Of a stretch of 32,000 nt of DNA, positions 3,295 to 19,548 are shown piece after piece. This DNA is from Candidatus Iainarchaeum sp. (lineage in GTDB: Archaea > Iainarchaeota > Iainarchaeia > Iainarchaeales > JACQJH01), in NCBI GenBank assembly GCA_016205145.1, contig JACQJH010000001.1, positions 330,001-362,000 on the forward strand. Direction: 5' to 3'. The position numbers and the translations under genes were made by a program. Under the pieces are notes generated by a model. The model did not search any database and had not been told where the DNA came from. It worked only from the letters and a program-made list of their open reading frames with translations. How positions within the stretch are numbered: position 1 is the first letter of the stretch; each line of letters starts with the position of its first letter.

Positions 3295-4053
3295 TCACGA
3301 GAACATCGGCGTCTGCACTGTCTTGTCCTCAAGCTTTTTTATTTCATCGCCCGTTTTTTTCATTGCGCCAAGGTGCGAGAGCAAAGCCTTCTCCGTTTCC
3401 TTCGCCTCCTTGAGCAGGGGAGCGATGTCAAGCCCCAGTCCGGACATTTCGTCAAGCTTTTTCAGCAATACCGCGGCAGCCTTGTAGTCCGCGGAAATCT
3501 GGACCCTGCCGAGAAGTGAGACTGCCTGGATGTCCTTGTCCATCAGATCAAGCATTATGAGCGCATTCACGCCGGTCGTGATGCCCTCGTTTATGATTTC
3601 AACGCCGTTTTTTTCCAGGAAATCCTTTGCCCTGGCATTCGAGGCTATGCCGTAGATTTTTTCCTTTTCCTCTTCCTCGGTCTTTATGCCGGCAAGGGAA
3701 ACCACTCTTTCAATGCCCTTGCCCTCGATCCAGTCCACGAGTTCCCTGGCAAAAATCCAGACAAGGTTCTGCGGAATGAGCTGCTCTGCAATGATCACTG
3801 CAAGCTTTTTCCTGTCGTTGACGTAAAGCCTCGACGGGTGCACGGGCCTGCCGCCGTGAATCCTGATGATCGGAACGAACGCGTTGGAATCCACGAACCC
3901 GATCTGCTCGAAATCAAGCTTTTCGACAAGGTATTTCGCGGCAATCGTGCCGACAAGGCCCATGCCGGGAAAGCCCTCAATGAGTGTATAACCTGAAAGG
4001 TTATGCTCGCCTTTTTCAACAAATTCAACCCAATACTTTTTCGATTCAGCCAA
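3295..4053 (-). CDS. PAC2-family proteasome assembly chaperone-like protein (COG1938)
   Basis: The N-terminal LIEGFPGMGLVGTIAAKYLVEKL... pattern and ~250-aa length are typical of archaeal PAC2 proteins. The start is TTG at 4053, because an in-frame stop lies 2 codons upstream. Confidence 0.75.
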   Translation of the reverse strand: MAESKKYWVEFVEKGEHNLSGYTLIEGFPGMGLVGTIAAKYLVEKLDFEQIGFVDSNAFVPIIRIHGGRPVHPSRLYVNDRKKLAVIIAEQLIPQNLVWIFARELVDWIEGKGIERVVSLAGIKTEEEEKEKIYGIASNARAKDFLEKNGVEIINEGITTGVNALIMLDLMDKDIQAVSLLGRVQISADYKAAAVLLKKLDEMSGLGLDIAPLLKEAKETEKALLSHLGAMKKTGDEIKKLEDKTVQTPMFS

Positions 4054-4108
4054 GGGAAATCACAATATAAGAAGAGTTTCAGTGTTTTTTAATTTATGTT
4101 TTTTTCGC

Positions 4109-4245
4109 CGGTTTCGTCCGGCTCGCCGTCACGTCCGGGCGCGTTTTCGACCGCGCGTGCCGAAACCAAGGCATATTGCTACGCAATATGCCGAGTATTC
4201 CATTAAAGCGTCCGGGGTTTTGCAAGGGGTGCAACCCCTGCGTTT
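4109..4245 (+). repeat. Structured intergenic repeat element, copy 1 (candidate ncRNA or hairpin-ended MITE)
   Basis: It aligns block by block with 18612-18758. Shared blocks are CGGTTTCGTCCG, GCCGTC.CGTCCGG and CGAA(A)CCAAGG. It has a 10-bp hairpin at 4170-4192 (GGCATATTGC-TAC-GCAATATGCC) and a GC hairpin at 4222-4241 (GCA-A-GGGGT-GCA-ACCCC-TGC). No credible ORF is present. Confidence 0.75.
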
Positions 4246-4315
4246 TATCCGGCTGGTCCGATGCCCATGCTCATTTCATTCGCATGGAGCTGCGCGCTGT
4301 TGCGCGTTGAGAAAC

Positions 4316-5248
4316 TCAAAAGAACATGCCTGCCGCAAAATACGCAAGAAAGCCCGCCGGAAGCATGAACGCAGCATACAAACAGCCTTTCTTCCAGTCC
4401 TTTTCCTGGAATCCGAGGAATGCGGAGGCAAGAATGGCATACTCGGCAATGTACGCCTGGCTGCCGAGAACCGCGGCGTCAAACAATTGTTTCCTCTGCT
4501 CCGCCGGAACGCCTAAGCCGAATTCCGCGAACTCCGAAAAATGCATTCCAGACACCATCGAAATTATCATGCCAAGAATGGCCGGAACTATAATTGCGCC
4601 GGCAAAAAGCAGGGTATATTTTTGGACTAAAAGGCCCGCCTGCCGTTCCCTGAAAGCGGAAGCGGTTTCAAGCAAATCCTCGGCGGTTTCCCGGAACACG
4701 GCTGACATGTCGGCGCCGCTTTCATAGCCGTGCAGCAAAAGGTTCAAAGCCCGGTCCGCGATTGCGCTGTCCGCCCTCTCCGAAAAATCCGCGAACGCCT
4801 GCGCAACGCTTTTTCCCGCGGTTATTCCTGCGGCGCATTTCCCGAACTCCTTTCCAAGCCCGCCGAATTCCTCGGAAGCGAACGCTTCAAGGGTTTTTGC
4901 CATTGGCGTTTTAGGCGGGAAAACCGATGCCTGCAAAAGCAGGTCCGGAATCATTTCCTCCATTGCCCGGCGCCTGACGCCGAACCGGTAAAGCACGGCA
5001 AACGACCTTGATGCGAGCGGCACGAAAAGCAATGCAATGCAAGCAAACAGAATGTGCCCGGCTGGAAGTTTCAGCAAAAACAGCACTCCGAAAAACGCGG
5101 CCGCAAGGCCCGCGCCTGAAAGCAGGTTTTCCGAAACAAACGATTCAAAGGTTCTGCCTTTCACGCAAAGCAGTTTTCCGCAAAACGAGCGCATTGCACG
5201 CTTTCCAAAAACGGTTTCAAAAAATTTTTCCAGCCGCAAGCATTCCAC
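4316..5248 (-). CDS. Type II secretion system F-domain membrane protein (TadC/FlaJ-half-like)
   Basis: 310 aa, polytopic. A cytoplasmic helical T2SS-F-like segment (SVAQAFADFSERADSAIADRALNLLLHGYESGADMSAVFRETAEDL) is followed by TM helices. It is the last gene of the ATPase operon. Confidence 0.6.
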   Translation of the reverse strand: MECLRLEKFFETVFGKRAMRSFCGKLLCVKGRTFESFVSENLLSGAGLAAAFFGVLFLLKLPAGHILFACIALLFVPLASRSFAVLYRFGVRRRAMEEMIPDLLLQASVFPPKTPMAKTLEAFASEEFGGLGKEFGKCAAGITAGKSVAQAFADFSERADSAIADRALNLLLHGYESGADMSAVFRETAEDLLETASAFRERQAGLLVQKYTLLFAGAIIVPAILGMIISMVSGMHFSEFAEFGLGVPAEQRKQLFDAAVLGSQAYIAEYAILASAFLGFQEKDWKKGCLYAAFMLPAGFLAYFAAGMFF

Positions 5249-8630: not shown

Positions 8631-11600
8631 TTATTTACGGGTAGCTGAGCTTAGGGTAGTTTTTTTTTTACCCCCTCTGATGTAGAGGTATCCCGCGACC
8701 AGGACAATGACTATGACTGCGATGCCCGCAATCAGGCCGGTGTTGTCCTGCTTCGGTGCCGGCGCGCTTGGCTTTCCAGCAACTGGCGCCTGCTCAGCTG
8801 CGCATGTGCCTGCCTTGCAGACCTTGCCATCCTCACACCAGGTTCCATCAAGCGCAGTGCTGTATTCGCACTGGCCCGTATTCCTGTTGCAGCTGGCTGT
8901 CTGGCAGGTTATCGCAGCGCACCTGACTCCGGTGCACAGGTTCTCCTGCTCGACGACACTTGTTACCGCCGGGGCAGAATAGTCCTGCAAAACCGCCTTG
9001 TTCAGGCTTGACCTGACCTGGTAGCTGATTGTGACCGATTCGCCTGCAAGGACTTCCGGAACCGTAAACTTCAGCACCGGGTCATCCTTGACAACTTCAA
9101 ACGCATAATTTGCGTTGATTATCTTTGAAGCCGTCATTGCCACGCTTTTCGGCACGAACTCTATTATTTCAATGTTCTTCCAGTCCTTGTCGGTCGTGTT
9201 CGAGATTGTCGTCTCAATAGTGCTGGAATACGTTGTGGCCTTTCCGCCGCCGGAAGTTTTCTCAACCGTCAGGGACCTTGTCACTTCCATCTTGGAAGCG
9301 GTGTCCTCCGCCGTTGCGACCGCCTGCTCGTCGGTTATGCCCGCTTCTGACAACGTGCTTTGCACCGATTCGACTGTCGGCATTCCAGTTGTGGAACCGC
9401 TGACAACTGTTTCAGTGCTCTGCGGCGAAGTGGTTGTTGTGCCGCTTGACGTCGTGCCGCTGGAAGTGCTGCTCGAACTTGACGTCGAACTGCTGCTTCC
9501 GCCGGTCACGAACACGACATTCGTGGACGTCACGGCACTGTTAATGTCCGAATAGTCCTGGGCCTTCACATAATATGTACTCGTTCCAGTCGGAATTCCG
9601 CTGTATATGAACGTGTAAGACCTGTTCGCAGTTTCGACCCAGGTAGTGTTGTCCTCGCTGAGCCAGTACTTTTCGACTCCGCTGACAACATCCGTTCCAT
9701 TGAAGTCAATGGTTATGGATGCGGCATTCACCTGCGTTCCCGCAGCCGGCGAATTGATCTGGACCGTCGGGTTCGTCGAATCGTTGATGATTATCGACGT
9801 GACAGACTTGTTCCAGTCGCCGAGCCTGTTGATGTCGCCGGTCTGGCCGCCTGAGAACCTGTTATAGTCTGGAATGTGGCCAGCGATATTTGTGGCATTC
9901 ACTTCGACTATGACAAAGTACCTTGCCGCGGACAGGTTGGCTGCGTTGAAGTCAACAGTGCAGTTGGTGTCCTGCTTGTATGCTCCATAAGTGCAGCGCA
10001 GACCGCTGCCCCTGATTCTTGGTGTAATTGGTTTCGATCCTGCATTATAATCCGAGTTATAATCCCATCTGTAATTCTGGTCCCTGTTAAGGACGTTCGC
10101 GTCCCAGGAAACAATGTTTATGTCTCTTGTGGTTCCGGTTGACGACAGCCAGACAACAAAGTTGTAGTCTTGTATGCTGTTGTAGTCGCCTACAGTGATG
10201 CTTCCGGCCTTGTTCCAGTCAACATTGACTGGGAAATGCACGTTGAAGTCCACTGAAATGTTCCTGTCGTATGCAGGCGCACTCGCGTTGGCAGTAACGT
10301 TGGCGTCGTTGCCGAAGTTCCTTGCGCCGAACGTGAAATTCACGTCAACGATGTTTATGTCCGGCGGGTTAATCCTGACAAGCGGGCTTGAGAATATGAG
10401 CCAGTTGCCGTCGGATTGCCTTAAGTTGACGTCAATGTAGTACATGCCCGGGAGGACTTTTGCTATATTGAAGTCCACTGTGCATGTATTGACGGTTGCC
10501 GCATTGCTGTCCGAATCCGTGCAGTAAACCCTGCCATTTTGCGAGTCGGTTGTAGCGCCGCTCTGCGTGAGGCCGTACTGTCCACCGAGAACGGACAACG
10601 TGTTCGTGTCGTTGAACAGCAGCAGGTTGCCATCGCCCGGGTTCTTTGACAGGTATATTCCTGTGACTATGTTGACGTCCCATGAATTAAGGTCGCTGGC
10701 GTTGCTGTCAACGAAAGTGAACGTGAAACTCGCGTTCTCATCCGCATTCGCCGAAGTCATGCCCACTCTCCTGCTCCTGAACGCCTGGTTGGCGGTGATA
10801 GTCAGATTCGCGTCAATGTTGAAGATCGCGTAAGCCGAAAACGTGCTTACCCTGAACGAGAAGTTTCCGTCGCCCCTTGCGGGATTGTATGCCCAGGTCT
10901 GCACTCCGGTTTGGGTGTCGCTGTGCGATTCCGCCAGCGTGCTTCCATCCTGGTTTGTGCAGATGCCTGCCGGGCACTTCTTGTTGTTCCTTGCAATGAC
11001 AGGCATGTTCGGGTTTCCTGTAACCACATAGTACCAGAAGACGTTCGCGTCAATCTGGAATTCGGGGAAGGACTCCGAGTTGAAGTTGAAGTCCTTGCGG
11101 TTGTTTGAAATGCCGTTGCTTGTGTAGTTCCTGTTCGCCCCTTTTGAAAAGTTTATGTCAGAATTCATTTTGATGACAATCGCCCTTGCAGTGGATGTCG
11201 CGGGGTCGCCGAACTGGACAATTATTCCCTTGACCGCCTGCGTGTTGTCAATATATTTATGCTCTATTGCATCCTGCATTGGCATCCTTGTCTTTGTCGA
11301 GGCCCTGCTGTCGCCGCTATAACATGTGCGGGCACTTGACTGGTTCAGGTCCTTGTCGCAGATAAGGACAGTTATGTTCACGTCTGTTGGAAACTGCAGT
11401 TTCGGCGTGACGACAAGCATTGAGTTGGTGTCAGCCAATGTTGAAAGATATACTGTTCCAAGGTATTGGGCATTGATGTTCGTGTCCGTTACGCCGATTG
11501 AGCCGAGCGTGACAACGCTTGAACTCGGTATGATGATGTTTACGTCAAAGTTTCCGTTTGCATCCGGGAAGATTATTGACTTGTTGAAGTCGGCAAGCCT

Positions 11601-12494
11601 TGCGGTTGTCACGAATTTCTGGCTTTCGAAGTATCCCAACATATCGTTATAGTTTGCGTCCTTGTCTTTCAGGCCAAGCGATGCTGCCGCTGTCGGACCT
11701 GAGGGAATGTTCCTGTCAGCGAAAATCCAAGGCTGCATGTAGTTAACATCTATTATAGTGTTTATGTCCCACTGCGAGCCGTTATGGTCAACGTATCTCA
11801 AAAGTATTCCCTGGTTAGTGTCAACCGGGAAACCGTAGCCCTGCACGAGTATGTTTGAGTCAATCTGGCCAACGGGCGTTCCCGCATTAATCCTTAAGTA
11901 TGGCGCAACCAGGAAGTTTGCGTCAGCGTAAGAGCCTGCTATTCCATTCGTGTCCGGTATGCACGTTGCCGCGCTGTTTTCGGTTGTGACAAGCGCCTTC
12001 CAGACCTGCACCAGGATTTCCTCGTTTTTCCATGCTGCTCCCGGGATTGTCAGGTTAGCGTCAAATCTTCTTGTGCCGCTGTTTGCTATTGTTGTGGTGT
12101 CATTGACATCTATAACGTCCATGGACCTTGTCGTGAAGCCATAGCTTGAGCAGCTGCCCTCGGTTACGGTGACTTTGCGTACTATTCTGTCGATTTGATT
12201 GAGGTCTGCGGTGTTTCCGTCGTTTATGGTGAGGTTGAAGTCTGTTGTTGTACCGCCGCTGACCGAACTGTTGAAGTCAAGGTATACGTTCCGCATCGGA
12301 TAGTACAGCCTTACAAAGTAGTAATAGCTGTTTGAGTCCGCGTCAATGTTGGTAACTATGAGGTTGAAGTCCTCGCCCCTGCTTGCGAACATCGCGCCGT
12401 TGTTGTCCTGCGCGTAAGCGCTTGCAGTCGCATGCGCCGACGCAATCATAAAAAACAGAATAGCGAGTGCTATCAGATACTTTGAAACTTTCAT
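8631..12494 (-). CDS. Giant cell-surface protein (~1287 aa): signal peptide, Asp/Asn/Thr-rich beta-type repeats, Ser/Thr linker, Cys-rich stalk and C-terminal TM anchor
   Basis: ATG 12494 is preceded by GGAGGT with 7-nt spacing. The signal peptide is MKVSKYLIALAILFFMIASAHA. The Ser/Thr linker is at 9384-9503, a 9-Cys module at 8802-8936, and the TM GLIAGIAVIVIVLVAGYLYI at 8679-8738, followed by RGGKKK. Confidence 0.85.
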   Translation of the reverse strand: MKVSKYLIALAILFFMIASAHATASAYAQDNNGAMFASRGEDFNLIVTNIDADSNSYYYFVRLYYPMRNVYLDFNSSVSGGTTTDFNLTINDGNTADLNQIDRIVRKVTVTEGSCSSYGFTTRSMDVIDVNDTTTIANSGTRRFDANLTIPGAAWKNEEILVQVWKALVTTENSAATCIPDTNGIAGSYADANFLVAPYLRINAGTPVGQIDSNILVQGYGFPVDTNQGILLRYVDHNGSQWDINTIIDVNYMQPWIFADRNIPSGPTAAASLGLKDKDANYNDMLGYFESQKFVTTARLADFNKSIIFPDANGNFDVNIIIPSSSVVTLGSIGVTDTNINAQYLGTVYLSTLADTNSMLVVTPKLQFPTDVNITVLICDKDLNQSSARTCYSGDSRASTKTRMPMQDAIEHKYIDNTQAVKGIIVQFGDPATSTARAIVIKMNSDINFSKGANRNYTSNGISNNRKDFNFNSESFPEFQIDANVFWYYVVTGNPNMPVIARNNKKCPAGICTNQDGSTLAESHSDTQTGVQTWAYNPARGDGNFSFRVSTFSAYAIFNIDANLTITANQAFRSRRVGMTSANADENASFTFTFVDSNASDLNSWDVNIVTGIYLSKNPGDGNLLLFNDTNTLSVLGGQYGLTQSGATTDSQNGRVYCTDSDSNAATVNTCTVDFNIAKVLPGMYYIDVNLRQSDGNWLIFSSPLVRINPPDINIVDVNFTFGARNFGNDANVTANASAPAYDRNISVDFNVHFPVNVDWNKAGSITVGDYNSIQDYNFVVWLSSTGTTRDINIVSWDANVLNRDQNYRWDYNSDYNAGSKPITPRIRGSGLRCTYGAYKQDTNCTVDFNAANLSAARYFVIVEVNATNIAGHIPDYNRFSGGQTGDINRLGDWNKSVTSIIINDSTNPTVQINSPAAGTQVNAASITIDFNGTDVVSGVEKYWLSEDNTTWVETANRSYTFIYSGIPTGTSTYYVKAQDYSDINSAVTSTNVVFVTGGSSSSTSSSSSTSSGTTSSGTTTTSPQSTETVVSGSTTGMPTVESVQSTLSEAGITDEQAVATAEDTASKMEVTRSLTVEKTSGGGKATTYSSTIETTISNTTDKDWKNIEIIEFVPKSVAMTASKIINANYAFEVVKDDPVLKFTVPEVLAGESVTISYQVRSSLNKAVLQDYSAPAVTSVVEQENLCTGVRCAAITCQTASCNRNTGQCEYSTALDGTWCEDGKVCKAGTCAAEQAPVAGKPSAPAPKQDNTGLIAGIAVIVIVLVAGYLYIRGGKKKTTLSSATRK

Positions 12495-12501
12495 GTTTTT
12501 G

Positions 12502-12561
12502 ACCTCCACCACAATCCGGAAACGGAATTTTCGTTATTAATAAAGCAGTTTTATTTAAATA
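12502..12561 (-). promoter_or_regulatory. Putative promoter and Shine-Dalgarno site of the giant surface-protein gene
   Basis: On the minus strand, TATTTAAATA (12552-12561) and TTTATTAATAA (about 12531-12545) are TATA-box-like. GGAGGT (12502-12507) lies 7 nt before the ATG. Confidence 0.45.
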
Positions 12562-15702: not shown

Positions 15703-16341
15703 GTGATGCTAAAATCGCCTTTGCCGCGCATTAGGCGTGCCGTGCAGGGCCGCCGGCGTGCGGTGGTAAAACGCGAATGGGATAGGCGCGCTAGTACTAT
15801 TGAGGCTGCCCTGCAGCAAAGGGAATTTTTGAAATCGTTGCTTGACGCTGAATGCTCGGGGCCGAACAGGCTGGACCTGATGTCCGGGACCGGGTTGGAT
15901 GCGGGCGCTGTTGCATTGGACCTTTCCGGCAAAATGCTTGGGGTGAACCCGGCAGCACGCAAGGTAATGGCAAACATTGACCCGCATCTTGGGCCGGCGG
16001 GCATTCCTTTTCCTGGCAATCAGTTTGACTCGGTTTCAATGGTTAATGGCGTGAGGTATCTGAACAGGCCGGCTGAAACCTTCAAAGAAATATTCAGGGT
16101 TCTGCGGAAAGGCGGAAAACTTGTCATAATAAACTATGCCGGGCCGGGAATAAGGGATGTGCCGCGGCCCAAAACCCTTTCAGTTTCGGGTTTGGAGAAA
16201 CTGCTTAATCGGTCGGGGTTCAAAACGCACACAAGAGAAGAAATGGCGCCGCCCCCCGATACGCTCTCTGTTATACGGGTGCTGACTGGCGCCGAACCGC
16301 GGTCCGTGCCGTATTTTGTTATTGTCGCGGAAAAACAATGA
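15703..16341 (+). CDS. SAM-dependent methyltransferase-like protein (Methyltransf_11-like)
   Basis: FPGNQFDSVSMVNGVRYLNRPAETFKEIFRVLRKGGKLVIINY is typical of the post-motif I/II region. Motif I is atypical (DLMSGTGLD). The start is GTG 15703 or ATG 15706, and TTTTAAATA at 15675-15683 lies ~23 nt upstream. Confidence 0.6.
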   Translation: MMLKSPLPRIRRAVQGRRRAVVKREWDRRASTIEAALQQREFLKSLLDAECSGPNRLDLMSGTGLDAGAVALDLSGKMLGVNPAARKVMANIDPHLGPAGIPFPGNQFDSVSMVNGVRYLNRPAETFKEIFRVLRKGGKLVIINYAGPGIRDVPRPKTLSVSGLEKLLNRSGFKTHTREEMAPPPDTLSVIRVLTGAEPRSVPYFVIVAEKQ

Positions 16342-16353
16342 CAAGCCTTGTTT

Positions 16354-16485
16354 TTATTCCCACTCTATTTCGTCGCCCTGGCGCGTGCCCTTCGCCTTTC
16401 CGGCGGGCAGTTCGATGAAGTATTTCGCGGCCTTTTTTCCGGGCATGGTTTGGCGTGAACGCCAAAGGGCTTCAGGAGCTGTCGC
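16354..16485 (-). pseudogene. Duplicated, frameshifted 3' fragment of the DUF192 gene
   Basis: 16354-16437 aligns with 17028-17111. The 51 nt at 16387-16437 are identical to 17061-17111, and the 33 nt that include the stop codon have 7 mismatches. Copy A has T6 where copy B has T5, which shifts the frame. Upstream, weaker similarity remains (LKPFG vs LQPFT). Confidence 0.75.
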
Positions 16486-16975: not shown

Positions 16976-17027
16976 AAGTATTCTATTCTCCCCCGGCTTA
17001 ATAAAAATATCCAAAGGCAGCAGGCCT

Positions 17028-17387
17028 TTACTCCCATTCTATTTCATCGCCCAACCGCGCGCCCTTCGCCTTTCCGGCGGGCAGTTCGATGAAGTATTTC
17101 GCGGCCTTTTTCGGCGTGTAATTCGGGGTGAACGGCTGGAGGCTTTCTGCGATGTCCACAACCTTTCTGTTCGAGTCGAGGAAAATTATGTCAATCGCGA
17201 AGAACACGAACATCATGTGCACGCTTGCCCCGATTTTGGATTCGGAGTCAAGCACGAAAACAAGGCCGTAATCGAATTTTTTCGTGTCCTCGAACATGAG
17301 GCCGCGCAGTTTGTCCCAGGAAGCGGAAATGACCTTGGACTTTGCAATGATTTTTGTTTTGCGGGTTTTGTTGAAAATCATCCGCAA
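17028..17387 (-). CDS. DUF192 (COG1430) family protein
   Basis: 119 aa. GLMF...D.....MFVFFAIDIIFLD....V......L.PF......KAAKYFIELPAG fits my recollection of DUF192. Confidence 0.65.
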   Translation of the reverse strand: MRMIFNKTRKTKIIAKSKVISASWDKLRGLMFEDTKKFDYGLVFVLDSESKIGASVHMMFVFFAIDIIFLDSNRKVVDIAESLQPFTPNYTPKKAAKYFIELPAGKAKGARLGDEIEWE

Positions 17388-18481: not shown

Positions 18482-18536
18482 GGCCGAAACGCAAAAGTTA
18501 AATGCCTTCTCCCGAATAATTTCTTTCTGCCATTCT

Positions 18537-18609
18537 AGCCCCGTAGTCTAGTGGCCAAGGATTCGAGGCTCTGGACCTCGAGACGAGAGTTCGAATCTCT
18601 CCGGGGCTA
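18537..18609 (+). tRNA. tRNA-Gln (anticodon CUG), no encoded CCA
   Basis: Hand-folded cloverleaf. The acceptor stem is AGCCCCG/CGGGGCT with discriminator A. The D stem is GTCT/GGAT with GG in the loop. The anticodon stem is CGAGG/CCTCG with loop CT-CTG-GA. The variable loop has 4 nt. The T arm is GAGAG-TTCGAAT-CTCTC. Confidence 0.93.
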
Positions 18610-18611
18610 AG

Positions 18612-18790
18612 CGGTTTCGTCCGCAGCCGTCTCGTCCGGCTGGTACGAACCAAGGCGTATTGCTGATCGCAATACGCCGGGTATGCTGTTTGTGCATAAG
18701 TGGTATTGCGCAAGCAATACCACGCAAGGGGTTTGCAAGGGGCGCTAGCCCCTGCGTTGTGACACGCCGAGTAAGCCGGCCTTTTTTTTT
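18612..18790 (+). repeat. Structured intergenic repeat element, copy 2, immediately 3' of tRNA-Gln and ending in a T10 run
   Basis: It shares the blocks of 4109-4245. Hairpin A is at 18654-18678 (GGCGTATTGC-TGATC-GCAATACGCC). An extra hairpin B is at 18700-18723 (GTGGTATTGC-GCAA-GCAATACCAC). Hairpin C is at 18735-18755 (GCA-A-GGGGC-GCTA-GCCCC-TGC). The T10 run is at 18782-18791. Confidence 0.75.
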
Positions 18791-18900
18791 TAGGAACCCA
18801 AAAAAGAAACCGCGGCATACTACTTTCTGCCGTATGCCACTGCCTAGCTCGGCTGGTTTTTGTCTGTTTGGCATTGTAAAGAATTCGGATTATTTTTTTT

Positions 18901-19548
18901 TCAGTCCGCATGGCCGTATTTTGCCTGCACTTGTCCCGGGGCCGAAACGGTTGGCGGCTCTGCGCGGTAAATCAGCCAGATAAAATCTACCTGTCCATCG
19001 GATTCTTCAATCGGCCCGTCCGCGATCCCGCCGTTCCAGTTGTCTAAAACGATTTTTCTTGCCGGGCCATAGGAATCGACTTTCCATTTCGTCCAGTCCG
19101 CGTCTTCAATCGCGGCAACGCTCCACTTTCCGGCCGAGCTGCTGAACTGCCATGTCCCGTCCGCGTTTATTTCGAGCCGGTGCCCTGTTCCGCTTCCCAC
19201 GTCCCCGCCTCCGCCCGCGTCATAAAACAGCCTTGAGGACAGGGCGCGCCATGAGCCGGCAAATTCCTGCGGATTTGACTGGCTTGCCTTGCCGGCTTCA
19301 ATGCCGGGAATTTCATCTTCTTCTGATGGAATGGCCGGAGGCGCATCGCTTTCATCTTCCGCAATCGCCTGTATTTCCTCGTTGTCGCTTGGCGGTGCAG
19401 GGGGCAGGTCGGAATCCTCTATTGCCGCTTGTTTGCCGCCTGCATCGGCACTTTTGGCGGTTTGCGGAAATTGTGTGCATCCTGCAAGCAGGATTAATGC
19501 AAGCAATGCCAATAATGCCAAATTTTTGAATTTCATTTTATCCATCAT
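18901..19548 (-). CDS. Secreted lipoprotein-like protein with an acidic Pro-rich repeat
   Basis: The signal peptide has a lipobox-like LLAGC (MMDKMKFKNLALLALLALILLAGC). A tandem acidic repeat reads EDSDLPPAPPSDNEEIQA / EDESDAPPAIPSEEDEIPG. Its start overlaps the upstream stop (ATGA at 19545-19548). Confidence 0.7.
   Translation of the reverse strand: MMDKMKFKNLALLALLALILLAGCTQFPQTAKSADAGGKQAAIEDSDLPPAPPSDNEEIQAIAEDESDAPPAIPSEEDEIPGIEAGKASQSNPQEFAGSWRALSSRLFYDAGGGGDVGSGTGHRLEINADGTWQFSSSAGKWSVAAIEDADWTKWKVDSYGPARKIVLDNWNGGIADGPIEESDGQVDFIWLIYRAEPPTVSAPGQVQAKYGHAD

Follow-up and report, generated by a model that had tools for sequence, protein, structure and literature searches.

The non-coding segment between the T2SSF (TadC-like) gene and PAC2 poses a simple question: is it an RNA gene, a mobile element, or a binding module for a protein? 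These were the three proposals of the original prediction, which had described a structured intergenic element present twice in the window (the whole 32,000-nt stretch of DNA analyzed here). Both segments are found where they had been placed, and they share the blocks CGGTTTCGTCCG, GCCGTC-N-CGTCCGG, and CGAA(A)CCAAGG. Their first hairpin reads GGCATATTGC/GCAATATGCC in copy 1 versus GGCGTATTGC/GCAATACGCC in copy 2 and their second GGGGT/ACCCC versus GGGGC/GCCCC, with the paired changes and the dissimilar loops that had been reported. Three collinear blastn matches connect the two copies (E 4e-5, 1e-4, and 6e-3 within the window), their local alignment scores 45 compared with 16.4 ± 2.5 (maximum 30) for 1000 dinucleotide shuffles, and the only three perfect hairpins of at least 10 bp in the 32 kb are all located inside them. 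The claim that the element holds no credible ORF also stands, and a search of the six frames of both copies, concatenated, against a set of 5.8 billion proteins revealed no spurious ORFs over other copies at E <= 1. At gathering thresholds, an Rfam 15 scan of the window recovered tRNA only and no match to the element; scans at relaxed E-values (around copies 1 and 2 and in the relatives L106/L107) produced sub-threshold chance matches only.

The element is, however, not restricted to two copies. A third, compact unit lies on the minus strand at about 27968-27897 (77% identical to copy 2 over 61 nt, E 3e-5), and more are present in relatives. Scanning JGI metagenomes with GGTTTCGTCCGN{2,8}GCCGTCNCGTCCGG gave three matches, all of them true relatives (L105, L106, and L107), whose copies occupy loci unrelated to those of the window, beside FKBP, aminoacyl-tRNA synthetase, HerA, and transglutaminase genes; degenerate units also stand behind each of the two L105 tRNAs that contain an intron. 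Homologues of PAC2 (L001 and L002, 94%) and of UppS (L108, 96%; L110 and L111, 81%, from the same two metagenomes as L105-L107; L117, L118, L123, and L125-L128, about 63-64%) led to the orthologous loci, and L001, L108, and L110 carry copies at positions orthologous to those of the window. The family is thus multi-copy, with three copies in the window and at least eight loci overall. In this genome, these are three units in about 39 kb, comprising the window and two Logan contigs that extend it and contain no further copy. A model (R1) built on one of the hairpin modules, hairpin a, and run with filters off on the window and 14 archaeal loci returned its own source copies and weak degenerate sites, and nothing else. 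Scanning the GTDB representative genomes, among which the species of the window is evidently not included, with CGGTTTCGTCCGS..CCCCTGCGY yielded no archaeal copy; the 94 matches are due to chance, as they all fall in GC-rich bacteria, for whose genomes the pattern is too loose. Given that this pattern found no archaeal copy among the GTDB representatives, the repeat family is phylogenetically narrow. We found no description of it in the literature on Diapherotrites, on DPANN repeats and mobile elements, or on archaeal tRNA trailers.

Our preferred answer, to which we assign a probability of about 0.55, is that the segment belongs to a mosaic interspersed repeat that is confined to one lineage of Diapherotrites (DPANN) archaea and resembles the bacterial REP, BIME, and BOX elements. 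As to the host, the UppS protein of the window is 100% identical to one from a MAG annotated as Candidatus Diapherotrites archaeon, and homologues of PAC2 agree with this affiliation. Comparison of all copies provides a modular plan with three parts. M1 is the P1 stem, in which GGUUUCG pairs with CGAAACC and encloses variable inserts: copy 3, L108, and L110 are the simplest, with a P1 loop of 11 nt, whereas in others the loop contains hairpin 1 (CAGCCG-UCUCGUC-CGGCUG) and, in copy 1, L105, and L107, is enlarged by further inserted hairpins. M2 consists of AAGG, a hairpin of about 10 bp, and then CCGAGUAAGC (CCGAGUA(A/U)GC). It is single in copy 3, L105, and L110, double in L106, L107, and copy 2 (where the second M2 is half deleted), and its hairpin is elaborated to a branched stem in L107 and L108. 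M3 is a hairpin of the form GGGG-UUU-GCAAGGGG(G)C-loop-G(C)CCCCUGCG. Among the hairpin loops are some of the GNRA (GCAA) and C(UUCG)G types. The three copies and their surroundings read as follows:

3295-4053, minus strand: PAC2 gene
4085-4097, minus strand: AT-rich TATA-like box, conserved in L001, L002, and L003
4107-4245, plus strand: main body of copy 1 (model R1, 57.2 bits)
4110-4116 and 4161-4167: P1 stem of copy 1, GGTTTCG/CGAAACC, with GCCGTCACGTCCGG and a GC hairpin (4139-4156) inside
4170-4192: hairpin a of copy 1, preceded by AAGG behind P1 and followed by the tail GAGTATTCC
4214-4242: module M3 of copy 1, GGGGTTTTGCAAGGGGTGCAACCCCTGCG
4246-4306, plus strand: degenerate partial second unit behind copy 1, a weak assignment read from the sequence
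4316-5248, minus strand: T2SSF (TadC-like) gene
18536-18610, plus strand: tRNA-Gln(CTG) (Rfam scan, 61.8 bits)
18611-18776, plus strand: copy 2 (model R1, 58.8 bits)
18613-18619 and 18646-18651: P1 stem of copy 2, GGTTTCG/CGAACC
18624-18642: hairpin 1 inside P1 of copy 2, CAGCCG-tctcgtc-CGGCTG
18654-18678: hairpin a of copy 2, preceded by AAGG behind P1
18682-18698: small hairpin of copy 2, TATGC/GCATA
18700-18723: hairpin b of copy 2, with a GCAA loop
18727-18755: module M3 of copy 2
18767-18776: end of the half-deleted terminal module of copy 2, CCGAGTAAGC
18782-18812, no strand: T10, AGGAACCC, and AAAAAAGAAACC, a hairpin with T-runs on both strands
18901-19548: convergent gene
27968-27897 (approximate), minus strand: copy 3, a compact unit (model R1, 59.3 bits)
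27957-27951 and 27939-27933: P1 stem of copy 3, GCTTCCG/CGGAACC
27930-27907: hairpin GGCAGCCTGC-tgac-GCAGGCCGCC of copy 3, preceded by AAGG behind P1 and followed by GAGTCAGCA
27872: ATG of the NTP-transferase gene, in the same orientation as copy 3 and 25 nt downstream of its end

These boundaries extend those proposed earlier at both loci. The stretch from 18611 to 18758 is present as described for copy 2, and the unit really ends with CCGAGTAAGC at 18767-18776; for copy 1, which lies in a 262-nt gap, the main body holds and a degenerate partial repeat continues to about 4306. In the latter, CCGGCTGGTCCGA (4249-4261) is similar to the P1-proximal block of other copies, and it is followed by a hairpin CCATGC/GCATGG (4265-4287) and a hairpin CTGCGCGC-TGTT-GCGCG (4290-4306), whose TGTT is the loop typical of the repeat family. 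As a side observation, the 26-nt stretch TGCCGAGTATTCCATTAAAGCGTCCG of copy 1 (4189-4214) is 81% complementary to 4423-4448 inside the T2SSF coding region, 208 nt away, and this coding stretch gives a weak match to R1 in the window and in L001.

Compensatory changes between copies 1 and 2 were noted in the original prediction, and the pattern becomes much stronger once more copies are added. When eight hairpin-a (M2) modules are aligned, 97.5% of the cells are paired; six of the ten stem pairs have changed on both sides and none on one side only. Not one of 500 shuffles matches the observed M2 pairing or covariation score, and shifting the pairing partner by one to three columns abolishes the signal. 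P1 covaries in copy 3, where one compensatory change converts UUUCG/CGAAA into UUCCG/CGGAA, and M3 differs between the window and L117 at two or three compensatory positions (GGGGGC/GCCCCC to GGGGAC/GUCCCC; GC..GC to AC..GU). Assigning a strand is more difficult. Wobble pairs are nearly absent from the long stems, the few that occur indicate both strands, and by folding energy the two strands fold about equally well; P1 of L001, L106, and L107, on the other hand, contains G-U pairs that are possible on the reported strand only. The hairpins are clearly maintained, and as far as the sequences allow, selection on RNA, selection on single-stranded DNA, and templated correction of quasi-palindromes would all be compatible with these data. 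A note of caution is in order: paired substitutions between two paralogous copies are not proof of a functional RNA gene.

The same alignment bears on the proposal of palindromic binding sites for a dimeric DNA-binding protein. The modules do contain perfect 10-bp dyads, as such sites might, and they are intergenic; in copies 1 and 3 a promoter is nearby. Yet the half-site is not conserved (GCGTATTGC, GCAGCCTGC, and GCGGTTCAC in different copies; L107 and L108 have long, elaborated stems); the stem sequences vary freely, and what is kept is complementarity together with single-stranded flanks, which are asymmetric. Most copies are, moreover, located behind genes rather than at promoters, and we consider this explanation very improbable. 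The defining motifs of K-turns, C/D box and H/ACA RNAs, origin recognition boxes (ORB), and tRNA acceptor-stem mimics are likewise absent, as judged by eye.

If the segment belongs to an interspersed repeat, related strains should help to reveal how its copies change. The tRNA-Gln trailers of the window, L108 (flanks 92-95% identical), and L110 (77-81%) differ strongly in their module sets, all of which sit between the conserved tRNA and a conserved downstream terminator. L104 (Logan SRR12113385, same strain) is 100% identical to the window up to the end of tRNA-Gln and then carries a different trailer (858-966, GACCCATC-TTCG-GATGGGTC-GGTAGTA), whose hairpin and tail resemble the module of L117; the contig ends in the Nextera adapter CTGTCTCTTATACACATCT, and the trailer could represent strain variation or, alternatively, a chimeric read. 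The L001 version of copy 1 has lost the stretch between two CGTCCGG repeats and has a different hairpin, and copy 3 is missing the stretch between two CCGGCU repeats. From their sequences, such differences look like deletions between short direct repeats, and others look like module duplications, with hairpins a and b of copy 2 as paralogues. Taken together, the comparisons show that the units are reshuffled by short-direct-repeat deletion, module duplication, and replacement between close strains. Empty sites exist as well: in L123 a T-run follows directly behind tRNA-Gln, L125-L128 have an A/T-rich terminator hairpin only at this position and lack the element, and in L117 the gap between T2SSF and PAC2 is reduced to 46 nt. 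Copy 2 shares 92% identity across 153 nt with the copy of L106, from a different locus, compared with 77-81% between the window and coding DNA of the relative (L110) from the metagenome of L106. Assuming that L106 and L110 belong to one organism, this similarity argues for recent copying or strong constraint. Short-read assemblies also break inside the element: L002 ends there, L103 ends at 18640, and the contig of L113 starts near 18747.

Where the copies are located is equally informative. The original prediction had missed that the first base of copy 2 is the base directly after the end of tRNA-Gln(CTG). The unit thus resides between the tRNA gene and its terminator, the hairpin at 18782-18812, which is a resident bidirectional terminator serving tRNA-Gln and the convergent gene and lies outside the repeat. 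The T-run behind copy 2 (18782-18791) is resident because it belongs to a terminator hairpin that is common to L110 (T-run, AGGAACC, A-run). Eight loci can be counted as independent: PAC2 (copy 1), tRNA-Gln (copy 2), NTP-transferase (copy 3), the main copy of L105, tRNA trailers 1 and 2 of L105, L106, and the tRNA trailer of L107. Half of them (4/8) are tRNA 3' trailers, one more is situated about 80 nt upstream of a tRNA, and seven of the eight share the direction of local transcription, the exception being copy 1, the sole copy antisense to both neighboring genes. In L110, L108, L107, and copy 2, a run of nine or ten T residues follows 11-16 nt past the last hairpin; copies 1 and 3 have no T-run after the hairpin. 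Judged by their neighborhoods, the copies are intergenic and appear to prefer the sense orientation directly behind tRNA and protein genes, ahead of an oligo-T terminator.

This context is also what favors a family of non-coding RNA genes or of processed tRNA-trailer RNAs that act in trans. Such RNAs would be co-transcribed with the tRNA or start at a promoter close by, be freed by tRNA 3' processing, and end at the oligo-T, and they would act through the conserved single-stranded motifs CGAAACCAAGG and CCGAGUAAGC. Copy 2, L108, L110, and L107 indeed begin directly after a tRNA and precede a T-run, and the prevailing sense orientation, constant single-stranded motifs next to freely covarying stems, GNRA and C(UUCG)G loops, and the strand-specific G-U pairs of P1 all fit this proposal, as does M3, whose conservation between the window and L117 amounts to about 83% in spite of UppS proteins that are just 64% identical. 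What speaks against RNA genes is that architectures are very unlike within one genome and that strains with 92-100% identical flanks differ wholesale; the long stems lack G-U pairs, fold energies favor neither strand, and behind tRNA-Gln the element is missing altogether from L123 and L125-L128. Copy 1 is oriented against its operon, and copy 3 is placed in an mRNA leader without a T-run. Nor do the copies have a promoter in common, since tRNA, a stop codon, and other repeats make up their upstream contexts. The TATA-like sequence TTTTTTAATTTAT is present at 4085-4097 as reported, but its use as the start of an independent small RNA did not withstand comparison with L003. There, PAC2 has another upstream gene, which ends about 36 nt from the box region, and the box and adjacent sequence are kept without the element. 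We therefore read the box, from its conservation, as most likely the promoter of PAC2 on the minus strand rather than that of the element. On this balance, trans-acting RNA genes are unlikely, yet the most probable of the rivals. Known RNAs linked to tRNAs (mascRNA and the Nanoarchaeum tRNA-sRNA co-transcripts) are comparable in that they lie directly 3' of a tRNA, whose processing could define one RNA end, and differ in being single conserved genes, whereas the trailers described here are mosaic, strain-variable, and also found away from tRNAs.

Of the three original proposals, a dispersed, non-autonomous repeat comes closest: the family is multi-copy, mosaic, and strain-variable, with empty sites, while features specific to a MITE or to an IS200/IS605 element were not found. 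Dispersed copies and empty sites (L123 and L117) are shared with MITEs. However, the two ends of the element, (C/G)CGGTTTCGTCCG on the 5' side and CCGAGTAAGC on the 3' side, lack complementarity and form no terminal inverted repeats, and no direct repeat indicative of a target-site duplication flanks copies 1-3, L105-L108, or L110. The archaeal MITEs and PATEs (SM elements of Sulfolobus; the IS200/IS605-group elements of Haloquadratum) are likewise small, non-coding, multi-copy, and hairpin-bearing, without an ORF; MITEs differ by having the terminal inverted repeats and target duplications that are lacking here, and PATEs by sharing their ends with a resident IS1341/TnpB element, which was not found in the DNA fetched. 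For a non-autonomous element of the IS200/IS605 (PATE-like) or REP/RAYT type, mobilized as single-stranded DNA by an HUH tyrosine transposase that is encoded elsewhere in the genome and recognizes AAGG-hairpin-CCGAGTA modules, missing inverted repeats and target duplications would be expected. Same-orientation hairpin modules with conserved flanking bases that recur within a unit, perfect Watson-Crick stems without strand-specific wobble, and the dispersed copies with their empty sites also agree with this explanation. Nevertheless, no transposase or integrase, and specifically no Y1 transposase (TnpA), TnpB, or RAYT, was detected when 26 longer ORFs near the copies in the window were scanned with Pfam, or in the Pfam tables of the genes listed for copy-bearing and other fetched contigs. 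The 5' bases of the units differ (CTAA, TTCG, GAAG, CTAG, and CGCG) and hence provide no conserved target tetranucleotide, L105, L110, and copy 3 possess one such hairpin only, and the GTAG/CGTC tag is absent from the hairpin foot. We regard such an element as distinctly unlikely. Membership in the MITE, IS200/IS605, or REP groups or in any Rfam family is not established.

The association with tRNA genes raises two further possibilities. One is that the units are debris or mini-cassettes of integrase-type site-specific recombination at tRNA 3' ends, att-linked remnants that were later spread by recombination. Trailers diverge at or just past the tRNA 3' end (with the window, L104 has one extra base in common, and L108 the first 14 nt of the element save for one mismatch). 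In L107, a tRNA gene with a 55-nt intron (1518-1394, minus strand) has its 3' end, CCCGGTGGTCGCA, repeated 88 nt downstream, and the two repeats bracket a degenerate unit. In L118 (63% UppS; 10826-10871), a hairpin insert of 37 nt comes after tRNA-Gln and, behind it, 11 nt of the tRNA 3' end recur as a direct copy (CTCCGGGGCTA), an arrangement that looks like an att-type scar. Against this, copy 2 is not flanked by a copy of the tRNA-Gln 3' end, copies 1, 3, and L106 are not adjacent to tRNAs, no integrase was detected in the window or the copy-bearing contigs, and scans of viral contigs with four patterns gave chance matches in coding DNA or nothing, which makes an integrase-type origin quite improbable. 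A 14.5-kb integrated element with copies 1 and 2 as its att sites was rejected, as the two copies are about 75% identical with indels, the interval contains housekeeping genes, and relatives show that the copies are independent.

The second possibility concerns tRNA introns, whose hairpin arms reappear in the trailers (L105, L107, and L108). In L107, the intron hairpin AAAACTTTT/AAAAGTTTT recurs in the insert behind the tRNA, and the two tRNA genes of L105 (1382-1212 and 285-102, minus strand; about 170-185 nt each) have introns of about 100 nt that are rich in CTTTTTCTTTCTT/AAGAAAGAAAAAG arms, with similar arms in the tRNA-Gln trailer of L108. Both intron-bearing genes of L105 were found by Rfam and missed by ARAGORN. 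It is conceivable, as a tentative and on balance unlikely extension, that tRNA 3' ends, together with tRNA introns, are the specific sites at which units are swapped or copied, either as a novel archaeal mobile cassette or as a tRNA-linked processed RNA. Stable RNAs released by tRNA 3' processing could then constitute a tRNA-trailer RNA family that functions in trans in a genome-reduced archaeon, a reading we hold just as tentatively.

The proposed mosaic interspersed repeat is similar to bacterial REP and BIME sequences. Like these, the units here are short, extragenic, and built from hairpins whose stems vary while the bases at the foot are conserved; they form mosaics, lie mostly downstream of genes, vary between strains, and would be transcribed as 3' hairpins. 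Bacterial REPs tagged with GTAG or CGTC are located downstream of genes and probably transcribed, and a role as RNA has been proposed for them (Di Nocera et al., PMC3733652). These REPs are the nearest functional analogue, but the tags that define them are missing from the archaeal repeat, whose hairpin modules (23-25 nt) are flanked at the foot by AAGG and CCGAGTA and which has CGTC inside the P1 domain only. The archaeal host, the lack of head-to-head dimers, and the lack of a RAYT gene in the DNA fetched are further differences, as are the larger unit (70-300 nt), the distinct 5' P1 domain, and the preference for tRNA trailers. REP and BIME palindromes (20-40 nt, imperfect) occur in many copies; for the archaeal repeat, three units were seen in the roughly 39 kb covered. 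BOX elements of Streptococcus pneumoniae (boxA-boxB(n)-boxC) offer a second comparison. They are intergenic and consist of a modular head, variable internal hairpin modules, and a tail, with a stable predicted fold and no transposase of their own. The archaeal repeat has all of these features in common with BOX; the two show no sequence relationship and differ in domain of life, in copy number, and in the nested insertions inside the stem that are seen here.

How might such a repeat arise and persist? We infer that the units spread or are homogenized by copying in trans, which could involve transposition or recombination and gene conversion among copies. Because they lie in 3' trailers, the units would be transcribed as such and fold into stable stem-loops, and these may protect 3' ends or aid termination in cis, by analogy to what has been proposed for bacterial REP/BIME and BOX sequences. 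Perfect stems may persist because the hairpin is selected, because template switching corrects quasi-palindromes, or for both reasons. A cis-acting RNA role could not apply to every copy, since copy 1 is antisense to its neighbors, and the total absence of G-U pairs from the long stems (the few exceptions above aside) is unusual for RNA under selection and counts against the interspersed-repeat reading.

In bacteria, interspersed hairpin repeats of the REP/BIME/BOX type have been documented well, and we found no description of them in the literature on archaea or DPANN genomes. The latter are small and thought to be streamlined, and a fast-changing mosaic repeat behind tRNA genes would matter in this setting. 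It would explain why these metagenome-assembled genomes break at the element, supply strain markers, and indicate either a new copying mechanism or a cis RNA function at 3' ends, in hosts whose transcription termination and RNA decay are poorly known.

Three additional features of the window deserve mention. A minus-strand ORF of 1293 aa (8631-12512) without a Pfam match adjoins P-type ATPase and type IV pilus genes, and L118 encodes a 1190-aa protein, also without Pfam matches, in a neighborhood that resembles this one. An 85-nt direct repeat (16353-16437 and 17027-17111; 92% identical, 674 nt apart) is positioned at the ends of neighboring minus-strand ORFs, one of which encodes a DUF192 protein. 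Finally, positions 1-303 of L110 are 93% identical to 16156-16459 of the window, compared with 77-81% for the remainder of L110, and this high identity could reflect a recombination tract.
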